Source: Candidatus Woesearchaeota archaeon
GTDB taxonomy: Archaea > Nanobdellota > Nanobdellia > Pacearchaeales > GW2011-AR1
DNA length: 64,000 nt
NCBI GenBank assembly: GCA_964419155.1
Contig: CAYQOK010000001.1
Span: forward strand, 3,623-67,622
Reading direction: 5' to 3'
Below are positions 10,660 to 63,529 of the stretch, in pieces (positions within the stretch are counted from its first letter, which is position 1; every line of letters starts with the position of its first letter). A program made the translations under genes and the position numbers. The notes beneath the pieces are model-generated. The model saw only the letters and a list, made by a program, of their open reading frames with translations, was not told where the DNA came from and searched no databases.

Positions 10660-10766
10660 AAGGTATTAAGTTTTGATAAGTATAAAAGCATTATCCAATA
10701 GAGTTATAATTTATTATTAATTCAAAAGAAGAATGTTTATAAATCATTTAATGTTAGAATAATTAA

Positions 10767-28900: not shown

Positions 28901-28901
28901 A

Positions 28902-29160
28902 ATGATTTCAATAATTATAACTTCGTATAAAGAACCTAATAAAATTGAACTAGATAAAACAGCAGTTGCTAAAGATTTAAGTCTTGAACCCTTAAATGGC
29001 TTTCTTGTTTGCTAAAGACAGAAATTCAGCATTAGAAAGAATAAGAAAACTCGCTAAGGAAGATAGATATTATCGTTGTAAGTCTGTTCGTCTTAATAAA
29101 AAACAAGTTCCGCACAGTTCTGGGTGGAAAACTTGGAAGATTGTAAAGCAAAAATCTTGT
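28902..29160 (+). pseudogene. Remnant of a GT2 glycosyltransferase gene (N-terminal 37 codons, then out-of-frame C-terminal-like piece)
   Basis: 'MISIIITSYKEPNKIE' closely resembles the N-terminus 'MKISIIITSFKESHLIS' of the GT2 at 62615-63529, then hits a stop. A second short frame follows. Confidence 0.35.
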
Positions 29161-29279
29161 TAATACCATTTTCTAAAAATAATAAATGATTTTTAAGTTC
29201 GGAGCAGTTAATAATTTTTTTTTAAAAAATAATATTTTATTTAAACAAAAGAAATTTTTATCCCAAAACTTCTTTACGA

Positions 29280-29322
29280 CTTATTAAACAGAAAGGAATT
29301 ATTAAACAAAGCCAGAGGCATC
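29280..29322. repeat. Partial tandem copies of the right inverted-repeat arm (CTTATTAAACAG / TTATTAAACAAAGCC) followed by 'agaggcatc'
   Basis: Read directly. Mirrors the element at 27638-27712, so the two sites bracket the GT4 gene and GT2 remnant. Confidence 0.6.
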
Positions 29323-29455
29323 AAAAGCTTTATAAATACCTTATTTCTTTGAATATTATAAGTTTCTGATAGCAGTCACTTGTGGACAGGCTCAGGAACA
29401 TGTCTTAACTAGAATTGTTAAGAGTGTTTTCTATCAGAAATAATAAGATATTAAA

Positions 29456-45603: not shown

Positions 45604-48360
45604 ATGGAAGAAGAAAAAATAATTGAACAAAGAAGAAAAAATTTTATTAGTTCATTAAAGAAAAATACTTTTTTAATAACAATTATATTTTTATTAATTG
45701 CCCTAGTTCTCGGAGTTTATATTAGGAGTCTTCCTATGAAGAGTCATGGAGATAATCCTGGTTTGTGGGATATTTCCACTGATTCGTGGACCTTGGGCCC
45801 TGATTTAGATCCTTTTTTGTTTCTAAGATATGCAGAGTTAATTGTAGAACAAGGAAAAATTCCTGAGATAGATACTCTAAGATATGTTCCATTGGGATTT
45901 GAAACTTCAAGAGAAACACAGTTATTACCTTATCTTATTGCATACACTTATAAGTTTTTAAATTTGTTTATGAATCCAACTATTGCTTTTGCAGGAGTTA
46001 TTCTTCCTGTAATTATGTTTGGATTAACTGTGATTGCTTTCTTTTTATTTGTAAGAGAGTTATTTATTGATTTTGAGTTTTTTGAAAAATCAAGGAGGAA
46101 AATAATTGCAAATTCTATTTCACTAATATCTACTTTCTTAATGATTGTTGCACCATCATTTTTATCAAGAACAATTGCTGGAATTCCTGAAAAAGAATCT
46201 GTTAGTTTCTTTTTTATGTTTCTCTGTTTTTATTTATTTTTAAAAGCATGGAAATCTGAAAATAAGAAAAGATTAGTTATTTTTAGTGTTCTTGCTGGTT
46301 TATCAACTGCTGCAATGGGTCTTGTATGGGGTGGTGTTATTTATGTTTTTGTTACAATTTCAGTTTCTTTTTTAATAGGTTTTATATTAAATAAAACAAA
46401 AGAAAAAGAAATATTAGTATATGGAATTTGGTTTTTGGTTTCATTAGCAGGAATATTCTTTTTTACAGATAAATTTTCTTTAAAAGAATTTATTTCATCA
46501 CTTGATACTGGTTTAGCTTTTGTAGTATTTTTTATTTCAATAGTTCATATTATAGTATTAAAAACAAGATTATTAGAAAAAGAAAGTGTTAAGAAAAAAT
46601 TAAAACATCACATGCCTGAAAATTTTGTTTCTTTGGGTATTGCAATATTAATAGGTATTTTAGGTGTTTTGATTTTTTTTGGTCCTGGATTTTTTATTGA
46701 AAAAATAAGTGATTTAAATAGAATTTTATTTAAACCTGTTGAAGGAAGGTGGAATATTACTGTTGCGGAAAACAGACAACCTTATTTTACAGAATGGGTA
46801 GCAAATTTTGGCCCTAATATTAGAAACATTCCATTAATGTTCTGGTTGTTTTTTATTGGATCTGTAGTACTGTTTAATGATACTATTAAAAAATTAGATA
46901 AGAAAGATAAGGCTATATTGATAATACTCTATATATTATTCTTTTTTGGTTTAGTTTTTTCAAGATATTCTGAAGCAAGTTTATTAAATGGGGAAAATCT
47001 CATTAGTAAATTGTTTTATTATGGGACCTCTATATTATTTGGGGTATACTTAGCTTATTCTTATTTTAAATATTCAAAAAAGCAAGAAAATCCATTTGAA
47101 AAAATAAATTATGAAATAATCTTTTTATTTGTTTTATTTGTTTTAACTCTTTTTACAGCAAGGAGTGCTATAAGGCTTATTATGGTTCTTGGGCCAATAT
47201 CTCCTATATTTCCAAGTTATTTAATAGTTTCAAGCATATTTAAACTAAAAAACATTAAAGATGAAACAACAAGAGCTGTTGGATTATTTATTGTTGTTGT
47301 GTTATTATTTTTAATAGCATATATGTTTTTTGTTAATTTTCAAATTATTAAAGCTCAAGCCTCTGTATTTATTCCATCCTCTTATACAAATCAATGGCAA
47401 TTAGCAATGGAATGGGTTAGAGAAAATACTCAAGAAGATGATGTTTTTGCACATTGGTGGGATTATGGATACTGGATTCAATCAATGGCAAAAAGACCAA
47501 CAGTCACGGATGGGGGCAATGCAATAAGCTATTGGAATTATTTAGTTGGAAGATATGTTTTAACCGGAGATAATCAAAAACAAGCACTTGAATTTTTGCA
47601 TACCCATAATGCAGATTATATTTTAATAGATTCTAGTGATATTGGAAAATATACTGCTTTTTCAAGTATTGGAAGCAATAAAGACTATGATAGATTTTCT
47701 TGGGTTCCTATAATGGTATCTTCAAAACAAAAAAATATAGAGACCAGAAATGGAACTACAAGAATATATGAGGGCGGTTCTATTATTGATGAAGATATTT
47801 TATATGGTGAAAATGAAACTAAGATATTTTTACCGCAAGAAAGTTCTGCTATTATTGGGGTCATTATAGAGGTAGAAGAAAATAATGAAAGTATCAAACT
47901 TAAACAACCAAATGGAGTTTATTATTCTAATGGTAAGCAAGAAATTATCCCTTTAAGATATATTTACTATAATAATCAAATTTTTGATTTTAAAAAAGGA
48001 TTAAATGCAACTGCATTTGTTATCCAATTAGCTCAAAGTAATGGAAATCAATTGTTTTTAGATAATCAGGGTGCATTAATGTATTTATCTCCTAGGATGA
48101 TGAAAGGATTATTTGCTCAGTTATATTTACTAAATGATCCTTTTGATAACTTTGATGCATTTAAGTTAGTACATTCAGAAGATAGTATTTTAATTAATTC
48201 AGTAAATAAGCAAGGTGCTGATTTAAATGAATTTGTTTATTATGGTGGTGGTATTCAGGGGCCAATAAAAATATGGGAAGTTAATTATAAAGGTGATGAA
48301 GTAGTAAATCCTGATTGGCTTTTAACAACACAACCTAATTATATTGATTGGAAATTTTAA
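45604..48360 (+). CDS. aglB: Oligosaccharyltransferase AglB/STT3
   Basis: 'HWWDYGYWIQ' (WWDYG motif). 13 N-terminal TM helices plus a soluble C-terminal domain. Confidence 0.9.
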   Translation: MEEEKIIEQRRKNFISSLKKNTFLITIIFLLIALVLGVYIRSLPMKSHGDNPGLWDISTDSWTLGPDLDPFLFLRYAELIVEQGKIPEIDTLRYVPLGFETSRETQLLPYLIAYTYKFLNLFMNPTIAFAGVILPVIMFGLTVIAFFLFVRELFIDFEFFEKSRRKIIANSISLISTFLMIVAPSFLSRTIAGIPEKESVSFFFMFLCFYLFLKAWKSENKKRLVIFSVLAGLSTAAMGLVWGGVIYVFVTISVSFLIGFILNKTKEKEILVYGIWFLVSLAGIFFFTDKFSLKEFISSLDTGLAFVVFFISIVHIIVLKTRLLEKESVKKKLKHHMPENFVSLGIAILIGILGVLIFFGPGFFIEKISDLNRILFKPVEGRWNITVAENRQPYFTEWVANFGPNIRNIPLMFWLFFIGSVVLFNDTIKKLDKKDKAILIILYILFFFGLVFSRYSEASLLNGENLISKLFYYGTSILFGVYLAYSYFKYSKKQENPFEKINYEIIFLFVLFVLTLFTARSAIRLIMVLGPISPIFPSYLIVSSIFKLKNIKDETTRAVGLFIVVVLLFLIAYMFFVNFQIIKAQASVFIPSSYTNQWQLAMEWVRENTQEDDVFAHWWDYGYWIQSMAKRPTVTDGGNAISYWNYLVGRYVLTGDNQKQALEFLHTHNADYILIDSSDIGKYTAFSSIGSNKDYDRFSWVPIMVSSKQKNIETRNGTTRIYEGGSIIDEDILYGENETKIFLPQESSAIIGVIIEVEENNESIKLKQPNGVYYSNGKQEIIPLRYIYYNNQIFDFKKGLNATAFVIQLAQSNGNQLFLDNQGALMYLSPRMMKGLFAQLYLLNDPFDNFDAFKLVHSEDSILINSVNKQGADLNEFVYYGGGIQGPIKIWEVNYKGDEVVNPDWLLTTQPNYIDWKF

Positions 48361-48397
48361 ATGTAAAATTTAAAAGTATTGAATTCTAAATAAATTA

Positions 48398-49426
48398 ATG
48401 GATTATAATTTGATAATTTCATTAATCATAAGTCTTTGTTTGGTTTTAATTGTAATGCCTAGATGGATTAGAAAAACAAAAGAAATAAATTTTATCTGGA
48501 AAGATATGAATAAACCACATAATAATGATTTAGAAACAAAATGGGTTTCAGGTTCAGGGGGTATTGTGGTTTGTTTTTCTTTTATTATTGGGGTCTTATC
48601 TTATATTGCAATTAGAACTTTTTTAATTCAAACTCAGGAAAATACAATTGAAATTTTTGCATTACTAACTACTATATTAATTACCTTATTAGTTGGTTTT
48701 ATTGATGATGTTTTTGGATGGGAAAGAAAAGGATTGGCTATGAGAGTTAGAATTCTTTTAGTAATGGTTGCAGCAATCCCCTTAATGGTTATAAATGCGG
48801 GAGTTTCTTTTATTAATATTCCATTAATAGGTTTAATTGATGTTGGAATCCTTTATGCTATTTTTTTAATACCCTTAGGTGTTGTTGGTGCAGCTACCAC
48901 TTATAATTTTTTAGCTGGTTTTAATGGACTTGAAGCTGGACAAGGAATTATTATTTTAAGTTTTTTATCAATGGTAGCATATTTAACAGATTCAAGTTGG
49001 TTAGCGGTTATTGGTCTTTGTATGGTTTCGAGTTTAATTGGTTTTTATTATTTTAATAAAGTTCCAGCAAAAGTATTTCCAGGAGATGTATTAACATACT
49101 CTATTGGTGCATTAATTGCAGGAATGGCAATATTAGGAAATTTTGAAAAAATAGCTGTGTTTGTATTTATTCCTTATATTTTTGAAGTAATATTTAAGGT
49201 TAGGGGTAAATTAAAAAAACATTCTTTTGGAAAAGTTTTAGAAGATGGAAGTTTAGAAATGCCTTATGATAAAATCTATGGTTTAGAACATTTTTCAATT
49301 TATTTTTTAAAGAATTTTATAAAAAAGAAGAAAGTATATGAAAAAGATGTTGTTTATTTTATTTTTTCAATACAAATATTAATTTGTATATTTGCTGTTT
49401 TTATTTTTAAAGGGGCATTAGTTTAA
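48398..49426 (+). CDS. Polyprenyl-phosphate HexNAc-1-phosphate transferase (MraY/WecA/GPT family, AglH-like)
   Basis: 'LVGFIDDVFGW', 'NFLAGFNGLEAG' and 'VFPGDVLTYSIGALIAG' correspond to the three conserved cytoplasmic-loop motifs of the family. Confidence 0.8.
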   Translation: MDYNLIISLIISLCLVLIVMPRWIRKTKEINFIWKDMNKPHNNDLETKWVSGSGGIVVCFSFIIGVLSYIAIRTFLIQTQENTIEIFALLTTILITLLVGFIDDVFGWERKGLAMRVRILLVMVAAIPLMVINAGVSFINIPLIGLIDVGILYAIFLIPLGVVGAATTYNFLAGFNGLEAGQGIIILSFLSMVAYLTDSSWLAVIGLCMVSSLIGFYYFNKVPAKVFPGDVLTYSIGALIAGMAILGNFEKIAVFVFIPYIFEVIFKVRGKLKKHSFGKVLEDGSLEMPYDKIYGLEHFSIYFLKNFIKKKKVYEKDVVYFIFSIQILICIFAVFIFKGALV

Positions 49427-49427
49427 A

Positions 49428-50660
49428 ATGAATTATATTCAAAGATTTTTAAAAAGTGATGTTGGAAAAGGGAGCCTTATTCTTTTTATTTTAATTAATA
49501 TTTATAATGTTATTAATTATTTATTTCATTTTTCAATGGCAAGGTTACTTAGTCCAGGCAATTATGCTATAATTGCTTCTATGTCTTCTCTTATCTACAT
49601 TTACACAGCTCCTGTTGAAGCTATACAAGGAATACTTTCAAATTATTCCACTCAGTTTAGTTCTGAGCTTGGAAAAATAAAAAATCTTTGGAAAAAAAGC
49701 ACAAAAAAAGGACTAATATATTCTATTAGTATCTTTATATTACTTTTTCCATTTTGTTTTTTTTTATCTAATTACCTCAATATTCCTTTTTGGGCATTAG
49801 TTTTAACAAATTTTACATTTGTTTTAATTGTTTTAGTTTCAATTAATAGGGGAATCTTACAAGGGAAAAAGCGATTTTATGGTTTGGGTATTAGTCTTAT
49901 AACAGAATCTTTAATTAAACTTGTTTTTGCTTGTGCTCTTGTTTTAATTGGTTTTAGTTATTTTGGAGCCTTAACTGGAATTTTAATTGGATTACTTCTT
50001 GGATTTGTTTTTTCATTTTATTTTTTAAAAGATATTCTAATCTCAAAAGAAGAAGAATCAAAAACACCTAATATCAAAGAGTATAGTTTTTCATTTACCG
50101 GAGCAATGATTGTAGTTGTTTTAATGTATAGTTTAGATATTTTATTAGCAAAAAGATTTTTTTCACCTGAAATTGCTGGAAAATTTGCTGTTTTATCAAT
50201 GCTTGGGAAAATGATTTTTTTTGGAACAATTCCAATTAGTAAAGCCATGTTTCCGATTTGTTCTGAAAGATATTATAAAAAACAAAAAACAAAAACAGTA
50301 TTTATTAAATCATTTTTAGGAATAGCAACATTATGTATTTTAGCAAGTACTTGTTTTTTAATTATACCTTCTCTTATAATTAAAATATTATTTGGTAATC
50401 AGTATTTAGATGTAGCAGATTCTCTTTTTTATGTTGGTATGGCTTATTCATTTCTTGCATTATCTAATAATGTTTTGTTTTATGGGCTTTCGATTAATAA
50501 ATTTAAAAAACCTTATTATTTATCAATTTTTTTAATAATGCAAATTGTTTTGTTATATTTATTTAACTCAACCATAATGCAGTTTTCATTAGCATTAATG
50601 AGCTCAAATGCAATAATGTTTTTATGTTTACTCTTATTAATATTATTTAAAAGAAAATGA
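49428..50660 (+). CDS. Wzx/AglR-like polysaccharide flippase
   Basis: 410 aa, about 12 TM helices, no soluble domains. Located between the GPT and a Dol-P-sugar synthase. Confidence 0.5.
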   Translation: MNYIQRFLKSDVGKGSLILFILINIYNVINYLFHFSMARLLSPGNYAIIASMSSLIYIYTAPVEAIQGILSNYSTQFSSELGKIKNLWKKSTKKGLIYSISIFILLFPFCFFLSNYLNIPFWALVLTNFTFVLIVLVSINRGILQGKKRFYGLGISLITESLIKLVFACALVLIGFSYFGALTGILIGLLLGFVFSFYFLKDILISKEEESKTPNIKEYSFSFTGAMIVVVLMYSLDILLAKRFFSPEIAGKFAVLSMLGKMIFFGTIPISKAMFPICSERYYKKQKTKTVFIKSFLGIATLCILASTCFLIIPSLIIKILFGNQYLDVADSLFYVGMAYSFLALSNNVLFYGLSINKFKKPYYLSIFLIMQIVLLYLFNSTIMQFSLALMSSNAIMFLCLLLLILFKRK

Positions 50661-51457
50661 AAAAAATAGCTATAATTATTCCTGCTTATAATGAAGAAAA
50701 AAGAATTAGAAAAACACTTAATGAATATTGTAGATATTTTGAAAAAAGTAAATTTTCTAAAACAGATGTTAAGATAATTGTTGTTGCAAATAATTGTAAT
50801 GATAAAACAGTTAAAATACTTGAAGAATTAAAAAAGAAATTTGAGAACTTAGAATATCTTGATTTAGAAAAGGGTGGAAAAGGTTTTGCAATTACAGAGG
50901 GATATGTTTATGCACTAAAAAAAGATTATGATTTTATTGGTTTTGTTGATGCTGATTTAGCTACTTCTCCAAAAGAATTTAATAAATTGATAAACAGCTT
51001 AGTTCAATCTAGTTTTGATGGGGTTATAGCAGACAGATATATTAAAGGATCTAAAGTCTATCCTTCTTTTGGTTTTAGGAGAATTGTTGTTAGTAGAATT
51101 TTTAATTTTATCGTAAGAGCCTTGTTTTTATTTTCTTATAGAGATACACAATGTGGTGCAAAACTATTTAAAAAAGATGTTATTAAAAAGGTCATTAAAG
51201 AAATAACAATTAGTCAATGGGCTTATGATATTGGATTCTTATATGCTTGTAAAAAAAATGGTTTTAAAATAAGGTCTATTCCAACTGTTTGGTATGAAAT
51301 GCCTGATAGTAAATTGAATATCAGTAAAGCTTCTGTTGAAATGTTCTTTGCAGTAATTCAATTAAAAATTCTTGTATCAAGATTTAAAAGGCTATTGACC
51401 CCAATAAAACCATTGATTTCAATAATTTATAAATATCTTAAAAACAGAAATAATTAA
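50657..51457 (+). CDS. GT2 dolichyl/polyprenyl-phosphate sugar synthase (DPM1-like)
   Basis: 'IAIIIPAYNEEKRI', 'GFVDADLATSPKEF' (DxD) and 'TQCGAKLFKKDV' match the DPM1 family QCGFK block. Confidence 0.75.
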   Translation: MKKIAIIIPAYNEEKRIRKTLNEYCRYFEKSKFSKTDVKIIVVANNCNDKTVKILEELKKKFENLEYLDLEKGGKGFAITEGYVYALKKDYDFIGFVDADLATSPKEFNKLINSLVQSSFDGVIADRYIKGSKVYPSFGFRRIVVSRIFNFIVRALFLFSYRDTQCGAKLFKKDVIKKVIKEITISQWAYDIGFLYACKKNGFKIRSIPTVWYEMPDSKLNISKASVEMFFAVIQLKILVSRFKRLLTPIKPLISIIYKYLKNRNN

Positions 51458-51464
51458 AGATATA

Positions 51465-52577
51465 ATGGAAAATAAAAAAACATTTTTAATTTTAGGGAGT
51501 TTGCAGGCCCCTTTAACAGGTTCTAAGATTAGAAGTAGGTCAATTGCAAAATATTTAGCAAAAAGAGGCCATAAGGTAATTTATTTAGAACCTACTGATC
51601 CTAATTCAAAGGAAAATCTTAAAATTAAAGGGGTAAAAATAATAAAAACCAAATTTCCAAATTTGATTTTTAGTTTAGGAATGATTATTGCAAGTATTGA
51701 TAATCTTTTAAAAGTAAAAAAAGTAAAAAAAGTAGATTATGTTATTGCAACAAAACCCCTTCCTAGTTCTTGTTTAGCTGCATTAAAATTAAGAAATAAA
51801 GATACTAAAATAATTTTAGATATTGATGATTTAGAATATGCTTATTGGTTAAACAACAAACCCATTGCTTATCTTTTAAAAATATTTGAAAAATGGGTTA
51901 TAAAAAGATTTGATTATATCACAGTCCATAATAATTCATTAAGAAGATATGTTGAAAAAAGCCTTAAAATCCCATCTGAAAAAATATTATTCTTATCTCA
52001 GGGATTGGATCTAGACCATTACACTGTTAGGACTAAGAATAATTTTAAGAATAAAAACCAGATATTAATTGTTTATACTGCTTTTTTAGGTATTGCCTCA
52101 GATTTAATTCCTATATTAGAGGTATATAAAAACGCAAAAAAACAATTTAATAATATTAAACTAATTGTGGTTGGGGGCGGCCCTAAATTAAAAGAGTATA
52201 AGAGGTATTGTAAAAGAAACCACGTCCCTGTTTTATTTTTAGGTTATAAAGACCATAATGAGACTTTAAAAATTTTAAAATTTGCGGATATTACATTAAA
52301 TTATAATAAAAAAAATTTTGCAAATAAATTCAGATCCCCTATAAAATTAAGGGAATACATTCTCTTAGGTAAAGAGGTTGTAACAACAGATATAGGAGAT
52401 ACTGCATTATTTAAAAGATATATTTATATATCCAAGAATAATTTAAATGATTATCTTCTATGTCTTAAAAAGGCAATTAAAGTTAAAAAAAATATCAATG
52501 GGCCAGACTATATAAAAAAAGAGTGTGATTGGGATAAAATAATTAATAAATTTTTAAAAGATTTAAATGAAAAATAA
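51465..52577 (+). CDS. GT-B glycosyltransferase (GT4-like)
   Basis: 'LIVVGGGPKLKEYKRY' and 'LREYILLGKEVVTTDIGDTA' resemble the GT4 C-terminal half. Confidence 0.5.
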   Translation: MENKKTFLILGSLQAPLTGSKIRSRSIAKYLAKRGHKVIYLEPTDPNSKENLKIKGVKIIKTKFPNLIFSLGMIIASIDNLLKVKKVKKVDYVIATKPLPSSCLAALKLRNKDTKIILDIDDLEYAYWLNNKPIAYLLKIFEKWVIKRFDYITVHNNSLRRYVEKSLKIPSEKILFLSQGLDLDHYTVRTKNNFKNKNQILIVYTAFLGIASDLIPILEVYKNAKKQFNNIKLIVVGGGPKLKEYKRYCKRNHVPVLFLGYKDHNETLKILKFADITLNYNKKNFANKFRSPIKLREYILLGKEVVTTDIGDTALFKRYIYISKNNLNDYLLCLKKAIKVKKNINGPDYIKKECDWDKIINKFLKDLNEK

Positions 52578-54015
52578 AAAAATTTTGGTTATAAATCCTC
52601 CAAGGGTGGATCAAAGACCGGTAGTAAGAGAAGAAAGATTTGAACATAAGGATTTTGAAGTTATTTATCCCCCTTTAACTCTACTTTATTGTGCTGGACA
52701 AATAAAGAAGAACGTAAGTAATGTAGAAGTATCTTTTATTGATGCAATGGGATATAATCTTAATTTAGATCAAATAAAAGAAAAGTTTAAGATTATAAAT
52801 CCTGATATTGTTATAAGCAGGTTTGCTTTTGATACTTTTCATGAAGATCTTAGTTTTTTAGAAGAAATTAAAAAATGGAAAAAAGATATTATAGTTCTAA
52901 CTAGGAATAAAATTGTAGGAGATGTTAATGATTTAATTGAAAAATATCTCAAAAAATATCCTAAAATTGATTATTTTATCACTTCTGAACAAGATATTGT
53001 GATCCATAAAATAATAAAAGATATTTTAAATAAAAAAATTCCTGGCTCTTGCGCGTATATTAAAAAAAATAAATTATTCTTTTCAGAAAAGTATAAAGAA
53101 GATGAAAGTTTAGATGAAATGGCTTTTCCAGCATATGAATTATTACCTAAATCTCCTTGGCCTTATAAAAGTTCATTATTTCCAAAGGACTTTACATTAG
53201 TTATGAGTAGTAGAGGGTGTCCAAATCAATGTACTTTTTGTGCATATAGAAATCAAAAATGGAGGCCTAGAAGTCCTGAAAATGTAGTTGAAGAATTAAA
53301 GATGTTAAGAAAAAAATATAATATTAAAAATTTTGTTTATTTTGATGACACTATTTCTATAAATAAAGAAAGGTGTTTAAAAATTTGCGAATTAATGAAA
53401 GAAAATGGATTAACCGATATGAAATATGCTATTTGTACAAGAGTGAATGCAATTGATGTAGAGTTATTAAAAGCCTGGAAAGAAACAGGCTTAGAAGAGA
53501 TCTCATTTGGAGTAGAATCTGGATCTGAAAAAATATTAAAAATGACTCGCAAGGGTATAACTAAAAAACAAATCCTAAATGCTTTTGATTTGTGTAAGAA
53601 AATGAAAATAAAGGCCATTACATTAGTTATTTTAGGACTTCCTGGGGAAACCTTGAACACTATAAATGAAACAAAAGGGCTAATTAAAAAAATAAATCCT
53701 TTTTATTTACAATACTCTTTGTGTATTCCTTTTCCAAATACTCCTGCATATGATTATTATAAACAGAATAATCTTTTAATTCATGAGGATTATTCAAAAT
53801 ATAATCCCTTAACCCTGGATCCTGTTATGAGGACAAAAGATTTAAGTGCAGAACAATTAATAAAAGAAAAAGAAAAAGCATATAAGGAATTCATATTAAA
53901 CCCTAGATTTTTTTTAAATAAGATCTCCTTAACTGATTGGGCCTGGAATATTAGGGGATTAAAAATGTTCTTAGATAGGGTTAAAGGAATAATAAAAGAA
54001 AAGTATGTTAGATAA
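52567..54015 (+). CDS. B12-binding-domain radical SAM enzyme (class-B-like), paralog 1
   Basis: N-terminal Rossmann-like 'KILVINPP...YPPLTLLYCAG', then 'SSRGCPNQCTFCAY' (CxxxCxxC). 482 aa. Confidence 0.8.
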   Translation: MKNKKILVINPPRVDQRPVVREERFEHKDFEVIYPPLTLLYCAGQIKKNVSNVEVSFIDAMGYNLNLDQIKEKFKIINPDIVISRFAFDTFHEDLSFLEEIKKWKKDIIVLTRNKIVGDVNDLIEKYLKKYPKIDYFITSEQDIVIHKIIKDILNKKIPGSCAYIKKNKLFFSEKYKEDESLDEMAFPAYELLPKSPWPYKSSLFPKDFTLVMSSRGCPNQCTFCAYRNQKWRPRSPENVVEELKMLRKKYNIKNFVYFDDTISINKERCLKICELMKENGLTDMKYAICTRVNAIDVELLKAWKETGLEEISFGVESGSEKILKMTRKGITKKQILNAFDLCKKMKIKAITLVILGLPGETLNTINETKGLIKKINPFYLQYSLCIPFPNTPAYDYYKQNNLLIHEDYSKYNPLTLDPVMRTKDLSAEQLIKEKEKAYKEFILNPRFFLNKISLTDWAWNIRGLKMFLDRVKGIIKEKYVR

Positions 54016-55048
54016 AATGACAGATCAAACAAAAATTAAATATAGCATTATTATTCCAGTTTATAATTCTCAGGGAACAATTTTAGAATTATTAAATGCA
54101 TTAGAAAATCAAACAAAAAAAGATTTTGAGGTAATTATTGTTGATGATGGTTCTAAAGATAATTCACTTGAGTTAATCAGGGCGCATAAAAAAAATAAAA
54201 AAATTAATTATCCTATTAAATTAATCAAACAAGAAAATGCAGGACCTGCTAAAGCAAGAAATGTTGGAGCAAAACATGCTGCAGGAGATATTATTATTTT
54301 TATTGATTCTGATTGTGTTCCTACTAATGATTTTATCGAGAAAATAACCCTTCCAATTGAGTTACATAAAAATATATCTGGAGTTCAAGGGGAGTATTTA
54401 ACAAAAAATAAAGAATATTTAATTGCAAGATATGTTGGCTATGAAATTTATTATAGGCATGAGAGAATGAAGGGAAAAAATATTGATCATATTGCAACTT
54501 ATGCTTGCTTGTATAAAAAAGAAGATTTTGGAGAAGGATTTTTAGAAAAATTTTCTAGTGCAGATATGGAAGACACTGAATTCTCTTATAGAATCTCAAA
54601 AAGTGGAAAGAGATTAATTTTTGAGCCAAATGCAGTGGTTTTCCATCCCCATCCCCATAATTTAAAGAAATTTATTAAACAACAATTTAAAAGAGGTTAT
54701 TGGAGAGCTTTTGGATATGGAGGTCATCAAGAAAAAATCTTTAAGGATTCTTATATGGGAAGCTCTGTTGTTATTCAGGGAAGTTTAAGTCTTTTATTTT
54801 TTATTAGTTTATTTATTTCTGTATTAGAACTATTTTTAAAGATTAATAACTTTTTTTTATTCATTCCTCTGATTTTATTAGCTATGATTTATATCACAAA
54901 TCTAGGTTTTGGATTTTACTGTTATAGGTATGAAAAAAATATGATTTTTATTGCACCTTTAATTGCATCAATAAGATCTTTAGCTGGAACCGCTGGTTTT
55001 ATTAAGGGTGTTTGCTCTAAAATTTTAAGGAAATATAAAATTAGGTGA
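54005..55048 (+). CDS. GT2 glycosyltransferase with C-terminal TM helices
   Basis: 'YSIIIPVYNSQGTI', 'VIIVDDGSKDNS' and 'IIFIDSDCVP' (DxD). Two to three C-terminal TM segments. Confidence 0.7.
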   Translation: MLDKMTDQTKIKYSIIIPVYNSQGTILELLNALENQTKKDFEVIIVDDGSKDNSLELIRAHKKNKKINYPIKLIKQENAGPAKARNVGAKHAAGDIIIFIDSDCVPTNDFIEKITLPIELHKNISGVQGEYLTKNKEYLIARYVGYEIYYRHERMKGKNIDHIATYACLYKKEDFGEGFLEKFSSADMEDTEFSYRISKSGKRLIFEPNAVVFHPHPHNLKKFIKQQFKRGYWRAFGYGGHQEKIFKDSYMGSSVVIQGSLSLLFFISLFISVLELFLKINNFFLFIPLILLAMIYITNLGFGFYCYRYEKNMIFIAPLIASIRSLAGTAGFIKGVCSKILRKYKIR

Positions 55049-55055
55049 AGTTAAA

Positions 55056-56513
55056 ATGAAAGTTTTTTATTTGATTCCACAATATGTAAAAGGGTTTAGT
55101 AAATCATCTAGATGGCAAACTATCAGTAGAGGATATACATTAAGACATCCTGATTTTCAACTACAATCTGTTGCTGTTTTAGAAGAATCTGGTCATAAGG
55201 TTAAATTTTGTGATGCAACTGCTGAAAAAATTGAAAAAAAATTGGTTTTTGAAAAAATAAAAAAATTTAATCCAGATATGTTAGTAGTGTATTGTACAAC
55301 CCCTAGTATTTATGATGATCTATCTTATATTCAGGAGTTTAAAAAAAAATATCCTAATGCAATTAGTGTAGTTATTGGAGCTCATGTTTCAGTTGAGTGG
55401 GAGGATACATTAAAAATTGCTGGACCTAGTTTAGATGTAGTAGTTATAGGAGAATATGATTATAGTTTAAGAGATCTTGCTAATAAAGTTTCATTAGAAA
55501 AATGTAAGGGTATTGTTTATCAAAAAAATAAAAAAATAAAAATAAATGCTCCAAGACCTCCAGTACCTATTAATGAACTTCCTTTTCCTGCATGGTATCA
55601 TATTAAACCAGAAGATTATCCAGATCCTGGTAAATTAAATCCTTTTATTACTATTATTGGTAGTAGGGGGTGTGTTGGAAGATGTGCTTTTTGTTTAATG
55701 ACTAATACGCTTTATAAAACATTAAGATTAAAAGATCCAAAAAAGATTTGTGATGAAATTGAATATGATCTTAAATTATTCCCTTATTTAAAAGAAATTA
55801 TGTTTGAAGACGATACCTTAGGTGCAATATCTAAACATACTAATGAAGTTTGTGATGAAATAATTAAAAGAAAATTAAATAAAAAAGTTTCATTTGCATG
55901 TAATCTAAGAGTAGACACAAAAAAAGAATTAATCAAAAAATTAAAACAAGCAGGATTTAGATGGGCTTGTGTTGGATTTGAGTTTGGAACTAATAAATCT
56001 CTAAAGGCTGTTAGAAAAACAACAACAATTGAACAAGCTAAAGAATTTGCAAAAGAAACTGCAAAACAAGGTCTAAAGATTCATGGATGTTTTATGTTTG
56101 GGGCTCCGGGTGAAACAAAAGAAGATTGTAGAAAGACTATTGATTTTGCTAAATCATTGCCATTAGATACTGTTCAGTTTTCAGGTATTGCTGTTTATCC
56201 TGGAACTCCTTTATATGACTGGGCTAAACAAAATAATTATCTTGTTCCAAAAAACTGGAGGAACTGGGTTACTGAAGATTATAAACAAGCAGGTTTACTA
56301 GATTACCCTCAACTTTCAACAGAAGATATAAATAAATTTATTGATATTGGATTAAAAGAATGGTATGGTAGGCCTAAACAAATTTTGAGATTAGGATTTA
56401 AGGTTTTGAAGAATAAAGGAGAACGAAAAAGAATAATACATGGATTTAAAAGTTGGATAAAACTTTATTCTCCAAGCCCGAAAATTTACAAAGTTGGAGG
56501 CTACAATGAATAA
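55056..56513 (+). CDS. B12-binding-domain radical SAM enzyme (class-B-like), paralog 2
   Basis: 'GSRGCVGRCAFCLM' (CxxxCxxC) preceded by a Rossmann-like N-domain. 485 aa. Same architecture as 52567-54015 but clearly diverged. Confidence 0.8.
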   Translation: MKVFYLIPQYVKGFSKSSRWQTISRGYTLRHPDFQLQSVAVLEESGHKVKFCDATAEKIEKKLVFEKIKKFNPDMLVVYCTTPSIYDDLSYIQEFKKKYPNAISVVIGAHVSVEWEDTLKIAGPSLDVVVIGEYDYSLRDLANKVSLEKCKGIVYQKNKKIKINAPRPPVPINELPFPAWYHIKPEDYPDPGKLNPFITIIGSRGCVGRCAFCLMTNTLYKTLRLKDPKKICDEIEYDLKLFPYLKEIMFEDDTLGAISKHTNEVCDEIIKRKLNKKVSFACNLRVDTKKELIKKLKQAGFRWACVGFEFGTNKSLKAVRKTTTIEQAKEFAKETAKQGLKIHGCFMFGAPGETKEDCRKTIDFAKSLPLDTVQFSGIAVYPGTPLYDWAKQNNYLVPKNWRNWVTEDYKQAGLLDYPQLSTEDINKFIDIGLKEWYGRPKQILRLGFKVLKNKGERKRIIHGFKSWIKLYSPSPKIYKVGGYNE

Positions 56514-58452
56514 GAGATCAGACAAAATCATTGATAGTTTTATGGATTTATTTTATTCAAAAAACAAAACAAAACTTTGTGTTTTAATGTTAGCATTAAT
56601 TGGATTTATACTAAGGATTATCTCTGCTAGAAATATAGGAATAAGTGCAGATGATGCAGTACATGCTATTAGGCCAATTGGAATAATTGAAAGTGGTAAA
56701 ATGGTAGAATTAGGACAATCTTCGGCAATGTGGTATTATATTCAAGAAATTTTTTATAAGATATTTGGAGCTACTCAAATTGGTTCTAGATTTGCATCCG
56801 CATTGTTTGGTGCGGCGTTAATTATTTTAATTTACTTGTTTGTTAAACAAATATTTAAATCAGAAAAAATAGGTTTAATTGCATCTGCTTTGATTACATT
56901 TTCACCTTTTTTAATTAAAATGACCTTACCTGAGATGGATATTGTTGTGATGTTCTTTGTTATATTTTCAGGATTGTTTATCTTTAGATTTAATGAGTCT
57001 TACAAAAATAAAGATTTGTTTTTTGCAGGTTTTTTAATGGGAATTGCTGTTTTAATTAAGGTCTACTCATTATTTTTTGTAGGAACATACTGTATCTTTT
57101 TAATTTATAAGGGGGTTAAGAAAAAAAAGATTAATAAAAGGTTCATTAAAGGCATTTTGATTTTTGGGTTTACAATCTTTATTTTTACAGTTCCTACCTT
57201 AACTCATAATTATTTATTATACAAAGATAAAGGTTTTATGGATTTAATTTTTACAAATGTGTTTAAATTAGGTCTTGAAAAAGCAGAAGAACTTTATTCT
57301 TGGGGTGCAGGATGGATGCCTCATACAGATTATAAAGGATTTTTTTTAGGAAATCAAGTTAATTTTCAGGAAAATCCAGAAACCATATACAGACTTCCTG
57401 GATTTATTGTTCTTCTTTATTTAAGTTTTATGGAAGACCCAATTTTAATATTATTTGGATTATTAGGATTTATTTATTTGATATTAAAAAAACATGAAAA
57501 TTATCTTAGTTTTTTTATAATTACTTTTTTTGTACCTTTTATTTATCTTGGATCTCATATTCCAATGTTAAAACATTTTACATTTATCTTTGTTTTACTA
57601 GTTCCAATATCTTCTTATTTTATTTATAATCTAGGAACTGATATTATTAAAAAAAATAAAAAAATAAAATGGAAATATCTTCTTATTTTATTAATTTTAA
57701 TTAATTTATTATGGCTTGGAAAAGGAGTTGATGGATTAAATAGTCATTTTTATAGTGAAAGTGGTGAAGGTCAATTAATTAATTATAAAAATCAAGTGAT
57801 CACAGAAGATTCTTTAGTAGTAGTAGACAGTAGAATTTTCAGAGGTTTTATTGGTTGGTTATTTAATGATAGATTTTACTTAGAATCAAATTATTTTGGT
57901 GCTGCTTTAGAACAAAGTGCTCAATATGGAGATCCTGTTCCACTTGAAGTTTACTATGTTGAATGTGCAAAAGATGATTGTGGATGGGGAACAATAAAAA
58001 ATCAACCAGAGTTTAATAAAACAATGGAAGAATTAACTACTTGGTTTAGTAATAATTCAGAGTTAATAAAAGAAATAAAAGCAGTTAATAGATATGAATA
58101 TTATTTTCCTTTTATTACTTCAAATAAAGAAGAACCTATTTATAGGGTATATAGGTCTACATTAATGGTAAATCCATCTATTCTTTTAATTGCAAAATCA
58201 ACTCATAATGTTTTAATGTATCCAATTGGATATGATGAGACCATAGGCCCTGTTTTTGATGAGTATCAGGTTTATTCTGCTTTTGATGGTTTATTAGATA
58301 AAACAGCACACATTATTTTAAAAACAGGCTGGATCTTTTCTTTTATAAGTTTAGGGTTTTTGATTTATTTGTTTATTAAAGAAGATGATGAAGACATTAA
58401 AGAAATTAAAGAATCAAAAAATGAAGTTAACCATAGTAATTCCAGTTTATAA
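56494..58452 (+). CDS. GT-C fold membrane glycosyltransferase (PMT/ArnT, GT39/83-like)
   Basis: About 11 TM helices. First-loop acidic motif 'ISADDAVHAIRP'. Large soluble C-terminal domain. Confidence 0.55.
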   Translation: MEATMNKRSDKIIDSFMDLFYSKNKTKLCVLMLALIGFILRIISARNIGISADDAVHAIRPIGIIESGKMVELGQSSAMWYYIQEIFYKIFGATQIGSRFASALFGAALIILIYLFVKQIFKSEKIGLIASALITFSPFLIKMTLPEMDIVVMFFVIFSGLFIFRFNESYKNKDLFFAGFLMGIAVLIKVYSLFFVGTYCIFLIYKGVKKKKINKRFIKGILIFGFTIFIFTVPTLTHNYLLYKDKGFMDLIFTNVFKLGLEKAEELYSWGAGWMPHTDYKGFFLGNQVNFQENPETIYRLPGFIVLLYLSFMEDPILILFGLLGFIYLILKKHENYLSFFIITFFVPFIYLGSHIPMLKHFTFIFVLLVPISSYFIYNLGTDIIKKNKKIKWKYLLILLILINLLWLGKGVDGLNSHFYSESGEGQLINYKNQVITEDSLVVVDSRIFRGFIGWLFNDRFYLESNYFGAALEQSAQYGDPVPLEVYYVECAKDDCGWGTIKNQPEFNKTMEELTTWFSNNSELIKEIKAVNRYEYYFPFITSNKEEPIYRVYRSTLMVNPSILLIAKSTHNVLMYPIGYDETIGPVFDEYQVYSAFDGLLDKTAHIILKTGWIFSFISLGFLIYLFIKEDDEDIKEIKESKNEVNHSNSSL

Positions 58453-59101
58453 TGAAGAAAAAACAATTCTAGAAGTTATTCAAAGAGTTAAAGATTTAAA
58501 ATTAGGAATAGAAAAAGAGATAATTGTGGTTGATGATGGTTCTAAAGATAATAGTTATAAGCTTGCTAAAACTATGAATGGCATAATTTTGTTAAAACAT
58601 AAAAAAAATCTTGGAAAGGGCGCAGGTTTTAAAACTGCATTAAAACAATCAACGGGAGAGATTATTATAATCCAAGATGCAGATATGGAACTAGATCCTA
58701 TAGAAATATCTAAGGTTATAAAACCAATATTAGATGGAAAAAGTGAAGTAGTTTATGGATCAAGAAATCTGCATAATCCTGGAAAAGATAGAAGTCCTTT
58801 ATTTTATTTTGGAGGTTATTTTCTAACAAAAATAGTTAACTTTCTTTATGGGACTAAATTAACTGATGAACCTTGTGGGTATAAGGCATTTAAAACTAAA
58901 ACAATAAAACAAATTAAAATTAAAGCAAATCGTTTTGAATGGGAACCTGAAGTAACAGCAAAATTATCTAAAAAAAATATTAAGATCATTGAAGTTCCAG
59001 TTTCTTCAGTTTCAAGATCTATAAAAGAGGGTAAAAAATTAAGAAGAAGAGATGGAGTAATTGCCCTTTTAACTTTAATGAGATATAGATTTAAAGATTG
59101 A
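58421..59101 (+). CDS. GT2 polyprenyl-phosphate sugar synthase (DPM1/GtrB-like)
   Basis: 'LTIVIPVYNEEKTI', 'IIVVDDGSKDNS', 'IIIQDADMELDP' and 'EPCGYKAFKTK'. Start placed at the internal ATG at 58421. Confidence 0.75.
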   Translation: MKLTIVIPVYNEEKTILEVIQRVKDLKLGIEKEIIVVDDGSKDNSYKLAKTMNGIILLKHKKNLGKGAGFKTALKQSTGEIIIIQDADMELDPIEISKVIKPILDGKSEVVYGSRNLHNPGKDRSPLFYFGGYFLTKIVNFLYGTKLTDEPCGYKAFKTKTIKQIKIKANRFEWEPEVTAKLSKKNIKIIEVPVSSVSRSIKEGKKLRRRDGVIALLTLMRYRFKD

Positions 59102-59132
59102 TTTCTAGAATAATAATATTTAATAGTCTAAG

Positions 59133-60260
59133 ATGGGAGATATTACTATGAATATTTTAATTATTAATTGGAGAGATATTAAAAATAATGTTTTAGGAGG
59201 TTCTGAAATTTATTTTTATGAAATTGCTAAAAGATTTGCTGAAAATGGCCATAAAGTAACTTGGTTAACTTCTAGAAATAAAAATAAGAAAATTGAGTAT
59301 TATGAAGGTTTAAAAATTATAAGAATTGGCAATAAATGGACTACTTATTTTTTAATTCCATTAAAATATTTATTTTCATTAAAACATAATTTTGATGTTA
59401 TTGTTGATGTAGAAAATGGAATTCCTTTTTTTTCACCTTTTTATAAAAAAAATAAAAATACAAAAGTTATTTTACATATTCACCATATTCATAAAGAAGT
59501 TTGGTTTAGAGAGCTTCCATTAATACTTGCAAAAATTGGTTGGTTTTTAGAAGGAAGGATTATGTCAAAAGTTTATAAAAATTCAGGTATAATTACTTTA
59601 TCAGAAAGTTCTAAAAAAGAGATTTTAAAAAATAAAATAAAAATAAAATCAGAAGAAGTATTTGTTGTAAATCCTGGTATTAAAAAATATAAATTAAAAA
59701 ATATAAAAAAAACAAAAGAACCTAGTATTTTATTTTTAAATAGAATTAAAAAATATAAAGGGGTAAAAACTTTTTTAAGAGCAGTAAAATCATTACAGGA
59801 CCAGGATATTAAATTTAATACTTTAGTAGCAGGCACTGGAGATGATTTAAATGAAATGAAAGATTATGCAAAAAAACTTAAAATAAAAAATATTAAATTT
59901 TTAGGAAGAGTAAGTGAACAAGAAAAAATAAAGATTATGCAAGAATCCTGGGTTTTTATTAATCCTAGTATGAAAGAAGGATGGGGGATTGTAAATATAG
60001 AAGCAAATTATTGTGGAACTCCAGTTATAGGTTCAAATGTAGCAGGAATTAAAGATTCTGTTTTAGAAAATAAATCTGGTTTGCTTTTTGAATATAATAA
60101 TGTAGGTGATCTTGCTAATAAAATCAAAGAGATTATTAAGAATAAAAAGCTTAGGGATAATTTAAGTAAGGAATCAAAAAAATGGGCTAATAAATTTTCA
60201 TGGGAAAAATCTTTTAAAGATTATGAATCAGCTATAAATAAAATATTAAAAATAAATTAA
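59133..60260 (+). CDS. Glycosyltransferase family 4 (GT-B)
   Basis: 'PSMKEGWGIVNIEANYCGTPVIGSNVAGIKDSV' is the canonical GT4 E-x7-E block. Confidence 0.8.
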   Translation: MGDITMNILIINWRDIKNNVLGGSEIYFYEIAKRFAENGHKVTWLTSRNKNKKIEYYEGLKIIRIGNKWTTYFLIPLKYLFSLKHNFDVIVDVENGIPFFSPFYKKNKNTKVILHIHHIHKEVWFRELPLILAKIGWFLEGRIMSKVYKNSGIITLSESSKKEILKNKIKIKSEEVFVVNPGIKKYKLKNIKKTKEPSILFLNRIKKYKGVKTFLRAVKSLQDQDIKFNTLVAGTGDDLNEMKDYAKKLKIKNIKFLGRVSEQEKIKIMQESWVFINPSMKEGWGIVNIEANYCGTPVIGSNVAGIKDSVLENKSGLLFEYNNVGDLANKIKEIIKNKKLRDNLSKESKKWANKFSWEKSFKDYESAINKILKIN

Positions 60261-60266
60261 TGAGGC

Positions 60267-61796
60267 TTAAGAATTCTTTGCGTAGATAACTAAAGTAGGT
60301 GCATTATTTATATTAATAGCTTTTACAGGGGTATAATTAAATTCTGAAAGCCCTTGTTGAGAATAAGCCCATTCAGGATGTTTTTCAAATATAGAGATTA
60401 TAATATATTTAGGATTTAGTTCTGATATATTCTTAATTAAATCTTCTTTAGTATCTGAAAAAGCATAACTATGTCTTTCTGAATAATAAGTGTTTTGAGT
60501 TCTACTCTGTGTTAAAATAATATCTCCTGGTTTTGAATTTTGTTTAATCCATAATGCAGCATCTTTTACAGGGCCATAAGAAGAAATACTTCTTTTTATA
60601 ATATTATCTGAAGAAACTAATAGTTGATAACTTCCAGTAATTAAAATAAATATAATAAATATCATTGGAAGTTTTTTATGAATTTTTTTAAGATATTCAG
60701 AAATTTTTATAATTGAATAACTGATTATATAAAACATTGCAGGGAAAATCATAAAAATATATCTATCTTCATAGTGGCTTACTCCAAAACCAAAGTAAAG
60801 GAGAGGAATCATAATCCAAATTAAAATTAAAAATTTTGAATTTAAAAATTTGTTTTTATTTTTAAAAACAAGGTCTAATCCTAAAAATACATCTAAGAAA
60901 AATAAAATTCCTATGAAGAGAATTATTAAAAGTAAATTGTTTAAATAATATGGAAAGGAGTTTATATATTGCATAAATATACTCAATCCTGATGAAAATG
61001 TAATTCCTTCAAGAGCACCTGAACCTGCATGAATAATAGGATAAAGGGGGTGGCCTAATTTTAATTGATTCCAAATTAAATATGGGCTTACAATAATTAA
61101 TGAGATTATTCCAGATATCCAATAATCTTTATTTTTTAGAGCATTTAATCTTTCAGTAGATAATATATAAAGAATTAATATAACAAAAAATAAAAAAGTC
61201 GGAAATCTAATTAAGGTCCCTATTGCAATTAGTGGAAAAACAAGCCATGTTGCTTTTTGTTTTTTTAATAAAAACAAATAATAAGCTGATAATCCAAGAG
61301 TTATGTGCAAAACATCGACCATAATTCTCATTGAGTAAAAAAGATTAACATAAACAATGGAGTAAAAAAAAGAAGATAAAAGAGCAATATTTTTATTAAA
61401 TAATTTTTCGCCAACTAAATAAACTAAAAATACTGTAAAAACAGAGATTAAAATTAAAAAAAATCTAATAGATAGTTCTCCCATACCAATAAAATAAAAG
61501 AAAGATAATAAAATGGAAAATAAAATTGGTCTTCCTTCCCAAAAACCTGTTTCAGGTGTGTTTAATGCAATATTTTTTGCTTTTAATAAATACTCTGCCT
61601 CATCCCACCAAACAGCCTGATCTTTTGTTAAAGAAAAATAATAAACACGAACAAGGAAAGAAAATAGCAAAATTAGTATCAAGAATACCAATGGTTTATT
61701 TTTAAAAAAATTAATTATATTTTTTTTAGTTTCTTTTTTCTTTTTTTCAAGTTCTTTTGAATCTTCTAAAGCATTTTCTTTTAGATCTTCACCCAT
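60267..61796 (-). CDS. GT-C fold membrane glycosyltransferase (ArnT/PMT-like)
   Basis: More than 10 TM helices. First-loop 'VWWDEAEYLLKAK' resembles the ArnT/PMT DE motif. Short soluble C-terminus. Confidence 0.5.
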   Translation of the reverse strand: MGEDLKENALEDSKELEKKKKETKKNIINFFKNKPLVFLILILLFSFLVRVYYFSLTKDQAVWWDEAEYLLKAKNIALNTPETGFWEGRPILFSILLSFFYFIGMGELSIRFFLILISVFTVFLVYLVGEKLFNKNIALLSSFFYSIVYVNLFYSMRIMVDVLHITLGLSAYYLFLLKKQKATWLVFPLIAIGTLIRFPTFLFFVILILYILSTERLNALKNKDYWISGIISLIIVSPYLIWNQLKLGHPLYPIIHAGSGALEGITFSSGLSIFMQYINSFPYYLNNLLLIILFIGILFFLDVFLGLDLVFKNKNKFLNSKFLILIWIMIPLLYFGFGVSHYEDRYIFMIFPAMFYIISYSIIKISEYLKKIHKKLPMIFIIFILITGSYQLLVSSDNIIKRSISSYGPVKDAALWIKQNSKPGDIILTQSRTQNTYYSERHSYAFSDTKEDLIKNISELNPKYIIISIFEKHPEWAYSQQGLSEFNYTPVKAININNAPTLVIYAKNS

Positions 61797-61885
61797 AAAT
61801 TAATTATATAATTAAGGTTTTTAATGTTTTGTGCTTGATAGATTATAAAGAAAAGGATTAAAAAGAAAGTTTATTAATAAAGAAG

Positions 61886-62613
61886 ATGAAAAAGCATCTT
61901 TATAACTCAAAATTATCAAAGTTTAAATGGTTTGTTAAAAGGTTTGGTTTAAAAGAGGTTTTTAAAAAACCGATAAGAGTATTGTTTTCAAAACAGATTA
62001 TAAAAAGGAAGAAAGATTCTTATTTTTTCTTAAATAATAAAAAATATGCTCTTTTTTATAATGAATATAATACAACATGGGATAATGAACGATGTGTTGA
62101 AGTTCCAGTTATTAATAATATAATAAATGAATTTTTAAAAAATAAAAATAAAAAGATTCTTGAAATAGGTAATGTGTTATCTAATTACTTTAAAAAACAA
62201 TGGGATATATTAGACAAATATGAAAAAGGATTTGGGGTAATTAACAAAGATATTCTTAATTTTAATCCTAATGTTAAATATGATTTAATTGTTTCTATTT
62301 CAACATTAGAGCATATTGGATTTGATGATTTTCCATTTGATTCGGGAGAAAAGATTTTAAAATCTATTGAGTATATAAGAAAATCCCTATTAAATAGGGG
62401 GGGTTGTTTGTGTTTACGATTCCAATTAACTATAACCCCTACTTAGATAAATTAATATCTAATAAGAAAATAAAGATGACGAAAACCTATTTTTTAAAAA
62501 GAATTAAAAAAGACATTTGGAAGCAGGTTGATTTAAATGAAGAATTAAAAAGTAAATATGGAAAGCCATTTGCTTATGATAATTGTGTGATGATAGGAGA
62601 AATTGAAAATTAA
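61886..62613 (+). pseudogene. Class I SAM-dependent methyltransferase split by a frameshift at a 7-G homopolymer
   Basis: Frame 1 has 'ILEIGNVLSNY' and 'YDLIVSISTLEHIGFDD' and stops 16 codons after the G7 at 62397-62403. The +1 frame continues 'GGLFVFTIPINYNPY...', which is the expected post-motif-III sequence. One extra G would fuse both frames into about 242 aa. Confidence 0.6.
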
Positions 62614-62614
62614 T

Positions 62615-63529
62615 CTAATGTTTTGTGCTTTTTACCCTTAACCAAGTTTTATTAAAACTTCTTTTCCAAAGTCTTTTATCAAAAATAACTCTAAACCAAA
62701 TGTAAAATCTCAGGATAATTAAAAGAAAAAACCAAAAAATTCTTTTAAAGGATTTTAAATTTAAAAGAGATTTAATGCCCACTGATATTTCCTCAAATAA
62801 TGAACTAGTTTTAGAAAATTTAAAATAATTATTTAATTGATAATATCTAGCAGCTGTTCTTTTTTTTTGTTTAATCCAATCCACAAGATTATCTGGATAT
62901 AATACAAAAACTTTTGCACGAGGTTCATAAATTGTCTTGTGAGACTTTTTGTTTAGCATTAAAGATATAAATGCATCATCTGCTAATGCGTCCTCTGGAA
63001 TTTTTTTAATAATATTTGATTTTATTGCATAAAGATAACCTGAACAGATAATATTTTTATTTAATCTTGTTTGTTTTAATCTTAGTTTATGAAATCCATT
63101 TGTTAATAAAAATGCCCAAAAACCAAACATTTTTTTTAAGTCATTAGTTGAAACAACTCTTGCGCTAACACCTCCTAAATCTATTTTATTTTCTTTAAAG
63201 TGTTTTATTAAATATTTTAGAGAAATATTAGAAACATAAACATCTCCGTCTGTTAAGATTAATAAATCTCCTTTTGCTTTTGAGAATCCTATATTTAATG
63301 CAGTTGGCTTACCTTTTCCAGGATCTTTAATAGATCTTATTCTTGGATTTTTCCTTGAAAAATCTTTTACAACTTCAAGTGTTTCTTTATCTGGTGCAAG
63401 AACAATTATTTCATAATCTATTTTATTTTTTTTATAATTTTTTAATAAATCTTGTTTTAAAAAAGAATTTATAGATCTTGAAATTAAATGAGATTCTTTA
63501 AAAGAAGTTATTATTATTGAGATCTTCAT
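62615..63529 (-). CDS. GT2 glycosyltransferase with C-terminal TM
   Basis: 'MKISIIITSFKESHLI', 'EIIVLAPDKETLE' and 'LILTDGDVYV' (DxD). C-terminal hydrophobic 'IFWFFLLIILRFYIWF'. Confidence 0.7.
   Translation of the reverse strand: MKISIIITSFKESHLISRSINSFLKQDLLKNYKKNKIDYEIIVLAPDKETLEVVKDFSRKNPRIRSIKDPGKGKPTALNIGFSKAKGDLLILTDGDVYVSNISLKYLIKHFKENKIDLGGVSARVVSTNDLKKMFGFWAFLLTNGFHKLRLKQTRLNKNIICSGYLYAIKSNIIKKIPEDALADDAFISLMLNKKSHKTIYEPRAKVFVLYPDNLVDWIKQKKRTAARYYQLNNYFKFSKTSSLFEEISVGIKSLLNLKSFKRIFWFFLLIILRFYIWFRVIFDKRLWKRSFNKTWLRVKSTKH

Follow-up and report, generated by a model that had tools for sequence, protein, structure and literature searches.

A seven-guanine tract at the frame break of a methyltransferase-like gene in an archaeal N-glycosylation island

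Campylobacter jejuni NCTC11168 carries 29 polyG/C tracts, eight of which lie in the CPS/LOS clusters, including the tract of the methyltransferase gene cj1426 (PMC8437040). This gene encodes a capsule heptose 6-O-methyltransferase that is phase-variable through its poly-G tract, with switching at about 2e-2 (PMC8437040). Reversible inactivation of genes by homopolymers has also been described elsewhere in prokaryotes, for example at the poly-A tract of Listeria inlA, in a survey that included 18 archaeal genomes (Orsi et al. 2010, PMC2831843); the tracts that were enriched and placed towards the 5' end of genes in that survey were poly-A/T, not poly-G/C. The archaeal distribution of phase-variable loci is still listed as future mapping work in a 2025 review (PMC11868660). 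Split genes in archaea can also be read through by other means; programmed -1 frameshifting at the heptamer A-AAA-AAT has been shown experimentally for the split gene fucA1 of Saccharolobus solfataricus (PMC1616953).

Here, we describe an interrupted gene in a 64-kb stretch of archaeal DNA, the whole of which was analysed and is called the window below. Its GC content is 26.8%, and its archaeal markers include AglB/STT3, prefoldin, an aIF-2B-like protein, an EMC3-like protein, SecY and a ribosomal-protein operon. A complete homopolymer scan of the window found only one run of G or C longer than five nucleotides, a tract of seven G's (TAAATAGGGGGGGTTG; wider context ...AAATCCCTATTAAATAGGGGGGGTTGTTTGTG...; Table 1). 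The same scan returned 20 runs of G5 and eight of C5, and none of G6 or C6.

The tract sits exactly at a switch of reading frame. Upstream, ORF A (61886-62446, 186 aa) ends in ...SLLNRGG followed by 13 aberrant codons, while the ORF B frame carries the downstream part (LFVFTIPINYNPY... / LFVFTIPINYNPYLDK...). Adding one G to the tract gives an ORF of 242 aa, whose peptide across the junction reads ...LLNRGGLFVFTIPINYNPYLDK, and removing two G's gives one of 241 aa. The coordinates and ORF frames agree with the original prediction, made from the sequence before this analysis, that the seven G's mark the frame switch, and the 242-aa ORF obtained with one additional G was likewise reproduced. The downstream part had been assigned to the +1 frame, which needs correcting: by coordinates it is offset by -1 from the upstream frame (61886 mod 3 = 2; 62404 mod 3 = 1). 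The frame is restored either by the insertion of one nucleotide in the DNA or by a -1 slip of the ribosome. Gain or loss of a single G within the tract therefore switches the reading frame inside an ORF, as in a contingency locus.

The locus shares with cj1426 a low-GC genome, a G tract within an ORF, a predicted surface-glycan methyltransferase, a frame toggled by one base and a location in a glycan cluster. Unlike the Campylobacter loci, which have measured switching and many tracts, we have here a single tract in an archaeal host. The protein belongs to an uncharacterised family that is presumably unrelated to that of cj1426. The homopolymeric-tract alleles of Orsi et al. (PMC2831843) are similar in that one coding homopolymer leads to a truncated product that slippage may revert. 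They differ in that the tract here consists of G, shows no over-representation and falls at 71% of the gene length.

Table 1. Positions of the gene, its tract and the surrounding features in the window
Feature	Position	Strand	Basis
N-glycosylation island enclosing the gene	45604..63529	.	Pfam scans
Flanking GT-C type glycosyltransferase, PMT_2, 509 aa	60267..61796	-	Pfam E 3e-16
AT-rich spacer, 89 nt, between the divergent PMT_2 and methyltransferase-like genes	61797..61885	.	ORF map
N-terminal coding part, residues 1-173 of the repaired 242-aa protein	61886..62403	+	ORF list, homologue alignment
Palindrome CCCTATT-A-AATAGGG, 15 nt, possible hairpin	62385..62399	.	Perfect 7-nt arms
G7 homopolymer, zero-frame AAT AGG GGG GGT, conserved Arg-Gly-Gly, one short of G8	62397..62403	+	
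C-terminal coding part, residues 174-242 and stop, -1 frame	62404..62613	+	69 open codons
Aberrant tail of the truncated product, CLCLRFQLTITPT and stop, if G7 is uncorrected	62404..62446	+	ORF list
Flanking family-2 glycosyltransferase, 304 aa	62615..63529	-	Pfam Glycos_transf_2 E 8e-19

The annotation pipeline called only the 186-aa product, which appears among the homologues as the window's own truncated ORF (P0001, from an NCBI contig of 71,123 nt). When the repaired protein is used as the query, 733 homologues are found at E<=1e-3, mostly of about 240 aa and covering 98-100% of its length; the best non-self matches have 53-54% identity. Alignments of 20 and of 78 sequences show no gap across the junction, and once a G is added the spacing (G173, six residues, P180) is the same as in the homologues. 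Among the 78 sequences, E68, E72, L92, E93, G95, V97, D110, S139, T140, E142, H143, G145 and G173 are invariant upstream of the break, and P180, N184, D188 and W212 downstream of it. The four downstream residues are all kept here, as are the near-invariant C-terminal residues T178, P228 and N233. One gene, not two, occupies positions 61886-62613, and ORF A and ORF B should be annotated as a single frameshifted gene.

The structure model of the 242-aa protein shows a class-I methyltransferase fold, that is, an alpha/beta Rossmann-like fold that can be superimposed on solved members of the class. The nearest structure is NodS (3ofj/3ofk), the N-methyltransferase of Nod-factor chito-oligosaccharides and a class-I SAM-dependent methyltransferase. 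In common with NodS and its class, the modelled protein has the invariant acidic D110 after strand 2, a 'GG' turn before strand 5 and a carbohydrate-related context; D110 directly follows model strand 107-109, where the acidic residue that binds the SAM ribose is expected. Unlike NodS, with which it shares only 15% identity, it is extended at the N terminus by about 85 residues, comprising three helices, a beta-hairpin and an invariant N-T-T-W-x-N-E-R motif. The glycine-rich motif I is also cut to E-x-G-N-V-L-S; its region reads I-L-E93-I-G95-N-V97-L-S, which retains only the acidic residue and the first glycine of E/D-x-G-x-G-x-G.

The protein further differs from NodS and other class-I enzymes in falling below the threshold of every Pfam and NCBIfam model. 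Methyltransf_23 scored 13.4 bits (cut-off 27) and Methyltransf_12 14 bits (cut-off 30), NCBIfam gave no relevant match, and the best match in a sequence profile search of the PDB was a weak one to the isoaspartate methyltransferase PIMT (1vbf, E 0.005). Because motif I is degenerate (LEIGNVLS, not GxGxG) and the Pfam matches are below threshold, we treat methyltransferase activity as putative; a SAM-dependent methyltransferase is nonetheless a reasonable inference for the protein's identity. Thus, of the claim that a SAM-methyltransferase is split here, the class-I fold was borne out, whereas no curated sequence family reached its threshold. The Arg-Gly-Gly encoded by the tract precedes model strand 169-180. 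According to the model, the truncated product, which lacks residues 174-242 and with them most of this strand and the remaining strands of the sheet, should be inactive.

The family of 733 matches is named by no Pfam or NCBIfam model and has an invariant N-terminal Y-N-T-T-W-x-N-E-R-x-x-E-x-P. It is spread over Verrucomicrobiota, DPANN, Bathyarchaeia, Asgard archaea and others, and this wide distribution suggests lateral transfer together with glycan loci. The gene thereby defines an uncharacterised, widespread family with a methyltransferase fold, whose members accompany pairs of GT2 and GT-C genes in glycan loci.

Pfam scans also upheld the proposed location of the gene within a glycosylation island, with AglB and glycosyltransferases around it. 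The island comprises AglB/STT3, a GT4 (Glycos_transf_4), a flippase-like gene, four GT2, two GT1, two radical-SAM and two PMT_2 (GT-C) genes. PMT_2 and GT2 genes, which flank the gene in the window, also adjoin its intact orthologues in L081 (Nanoarchaeota MAG GCA_030698805.1) and L082 (a Logan assembly). These orthologues have 51-54% identity and lie in the order GT2, PMT, GT2, GT1, methyltransferase-like gene, PMT_2 (-), GT2 (-). Since intact orthologues occupy this shared context in both assemblies, the gene is a conserved part of the glycosylation island. The family is a conserved component of N-glycosylation islands in DPANN-type (Nanoarchaeota/Pacearchaeota-like) archaea, beside a pair of GT2 and GT-C (PMT_2) genes. 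Because of this synteny we ascribe to the gene a presumptive role in glycan methylation; the substrate, judged by synteny alone, is most likely a sugar of a glycan or of a lipid-linked precursor.

The order differs locally between these loci. At 6001-9189 of L081 and L082, GT1 is followed by the methyltransferase-like gene (+), PMT_2 (-) and GT2 (-). The corresponding part of the window (60267-63529) is rearranged, with PMT_2 upstream; the methyltransferase-like gene is here the only one on the + strand and has a minus-strand gene on either side. The spacer between it and the divergent PMT_2 gene (Table 1) is presumed, from its position, to be the promoter region.

We also examined the homologous site in 80 homologues. 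Its G run is three or fewer in 74 of the 80; single homologues have G8, G6 and G5. The G8 belongs to L002, a Verrucomicrobiota MAG (CAZIDG010000058.1, 4038-4050), in which the gene is intact and the run is in frame (AGC AGG GGG GGG CGC). It falls on the homologous Arg-Gly-Gly codons and so represents the predicted in-frame state of the tract described here. The closest relative in the scan, L001 from a Pacearchaeota, has G6 at the site. The site is read through in one frame at all 80 loci and no homologue is split (0/80); the comparison of orthologous loci that had been proposed as a check therefore did not turn up the same lesion in any relative, the nearest of which are those with 53-54% identity.

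A habit of poly-G throughout the family, whether here or at other positions in the gene, was considered and rejected on these run lengths. Runs of at least seven G or C occur anywhere in the gene in only three of the 80 homologues, all of them in frame. A Woesearchaeota homologue (L063) has an in-frame G7 elsewhere in the gene. Recurrent frame breaks at G/C tracts in related loci were likewise rejected, as each of the four further G/C7 tracts in related archaeal loci of low GC content keeps the frame. Frame-break flags raised for two high-GC loci (L023 and L025) cannot be relied on, since base composition alone leaves alternative frames open in them.

The gene shows a single lesion. The 69 codons downstream of it are open in DNA of 24% GC, and the ratio of C-terminal to N-terminal identity to homologues is 0.775, compared with a family mean of 0.768 +/- 0.062 (rank 39 of 77). 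The lesion is therefore very young, or reversible, or not real; this lack of decay is equally expected from an artefact or from a truly phase-variable gene.

We favour, at chances we would put about even, an ordinary allele of a mutational hotspot: a young slippage from G8 to G7 that forms the majority in the sampled population and could revert. The functional state would be G8, encoding the conserved Arg-Gly-Gly as AGG GGG GG(G), from which strand slippage during replication would have dropped one G. The product would then end after 173 native and 13 aberrant residues and presumably be inactive. Such an event would have been very recent, with the rest of the gene still undamaged, and reversion could come about through the gain of a G at the same tract. 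The intact G8 of L002, the gap-free repair, the invariant residues on both sides of the break and the family-median ratio of C-terminal to N-terminal identity all support this reading. The direction, from G8 to G7 rather than from G5 to G7, is suggested by the gap-free alignment only. We infer that the indel arose in vivo and is reversible, much as we do the substrate of the enzyme. In kind, a one-base homopolymer frameshift is an event that is already well known.

The palindrome beside the tract (Table 1) includes its first three G's as the 3' arm, and a terminator-like scan gave three overlapping matches there, compared with 0.2 in shuffles. The palindrome might promote slippage of the polymerase in vivo, or else trouble during sequencing, although such a role is putative.

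We consider it doubtful, yet worth weighing first among the alternatives, that the 242-aa gene is intact in the organism, with G8, and that the consensus simply dropped one G during sequencing or assembly. Once repaired, the gene has no flaw and no sign of relaxed constraint, as would be the case if nothing had been lost, and the break falls exactly in a homopolymer, the sole long G run of the region, with the palindrome abutting it. Palindromic contexts raise sequencing error. The MAG is also represented by a single NCBI record. By exact sequence, the 186-aa ORF was matched a single time, on one contig, and there was no match to the 69-aa ORF or to the repaired protein; look-ups of contigs by P0001 and by each of the two neighbouring genes returned nothing.

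Against an artefact, none of the 219 coding A/T runs of at least seven nucleotides in the window is frameshifted, including 63 of at least eight and six of nine, and the coding density is 93.7%. No other split genes or frameshifts were seen in the window. As all 219 runs are in frame, an assembly generally prone to homopolymer errors is unlikely. A consensus error would moreover mean that an 8-mer was misread in most reads, which is uncommon in short-read or HiFi data. The proposal of a homopolymer sequencing error is thus weakened, although an error specific to this single G tract keeps a modest probability.

The tract might instead be a contingency locus, in which a selected slipped-strand switch turns glycan methylation stochastically ON (G8) and OFF (G7 or G9). 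By analogy, such a switch might serve, for example, to vary the cell surface that viruses, or the host cell of a DPANN symbiont, would meet. The codons of the tract give this idea some appeal. It is built from rare codons (AGG makes up 21% of Arg codons and GGG 12% of Gly codons), so that AGG GGG GGG has a probability of 0.003 given Arg-Gly-Gly, and GGG GGG is used in none of the 58 Gly-Gly pairs in 41 intact ORFs. The tract also stands out against an overall depletion of G runs of at least six (one observed vs 3.5-6.2 expected, by Markov models of order 1-4 fitted to the window). Poly-G phase variation is known from just this setting, a gene for surface-glycan modification in a low-GC genome, and the gene is otherwise under intact constraint.

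The same Markov models, whose expectations are analytic estimates, predict 0.6-1.6 G runs of at least seven per window and 0.12-0.41 of at least eight. The existence of the tract is thus not improbable and needs no selection; it had been singled out as the longest G run in the window, which the full scan supports, but it does not stand clearly beyond chance. G runs can arise by synonymous drift at this conserved Gly-Gly site, where they are short in most homologues, and the syntenic archaeal orthologues have AAA GGG GCT and AGA GGA AAA at these codons. The other G/C7 tracts of low-GC related archaeal loci, all in frame, speak against a switch too. The tract is the only one in the 64 kb and in the 18-kb island, with no multi-locus phasome within the window, and it lies late in the gene. 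Seven G's are at the short end of known hypermutable lengths. Length variants were also sought in pattern scans, which gave no matches for G6-G9 versions of the tract in metagenome contigs and viral contigs, and none for variants of the L002 G8 tract in metagenomes.

On balance, phase variation is mechanistically possible, but an evolved switch is a minority reading that we judge distinctly unlikely. If true, it would extend SSR-mediated phase variation of surface glycans, hitherto known mainly from host-associated bacteria, to archaea, and be relevant to surface variation in tiny DPANN symbionts. Should G7 and G8 vary within the population, the locus would provide a concrete, testable archaeal case of a phenomenon that is well established in Campylobacter and other bacteria and barely explored in archaea.

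Recoding of a stable G7 seems very improbable. In this case, the full-length protein would depend on ribosomes making a programmed -1 frameshift on G_GGG_GGT, or on an RNA polymerase that slips and adds a G to the transcript. The zero-frame heptamer (62398-62404) is a formal match to X_XXY_YYZ, though no more than formal, and a -1 slip on it would yield the homologue-like ...NRGGLFVF.... There is precedent for -1 frameshifting in archaea (PMC1616953, PMC8211752), and the C-terminal frame is fully preserved, which a young lesion explains equally well. Like fucA1, the gene is archaeal and carbohydrate-related, with two ORFs in frames 0 and -1 and a homopolymer-type heptamer at the junction. Unlike fucA1, its site consists entirely of G, is conserved in no homologue and has no predicted downstream structure.

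A canonical stimulator of -1 frameshifting after the tract was in fact ruled out: the 97 nt at 62404-62500 fold with -5.8 kcal/mol, no better than shuffled sequences (z = 0.05; 101 of 200 shuffles fold as well). As no homologue is split, frameshifting is no trait of the family. To our knowledge, the efficient slippery sites do not include any made up solely of G.

Finally, that the gene is genuinely decayed, as had also been proposed, is scarcely credible in the sense of a long-dead pseudogene: although the gene is interrupted and its 186-aa product alone annotated, its one lesion, its retained C-terminal invariants and a C-terminal divergence at the family median lead us to reject long-term decay.

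Several other features of the island and the window were observed. Two radical-SAM genes lie amid the glycosyltransferases (52567-54015 and 55056-56513), one of them with a B12-binding domain, and may encode radical enzymes that modify sugars or methylate. The syntenic stretches shown for L081 and L082 contain neither gene. Three island genes contain in-frame A9/T9 runs, namely the GT2 gene (62860-62868), the flippase-like gene (49757-49765) and the B12-radical-SAM gene (55341-55349), which are further potential slippage sites. The largest non-coding gaps of the window are at 28901-29455 (555 nt) and 10660-11147 (488 nt); Rfam and ARAGORN searches found nothing in the former and a tRNA-Ser (10767-10847) in the latter. 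The cumulative GC skew climbs almost monotonically between about 6 kb and 60 kb, which fits the + strand bias of the genes.
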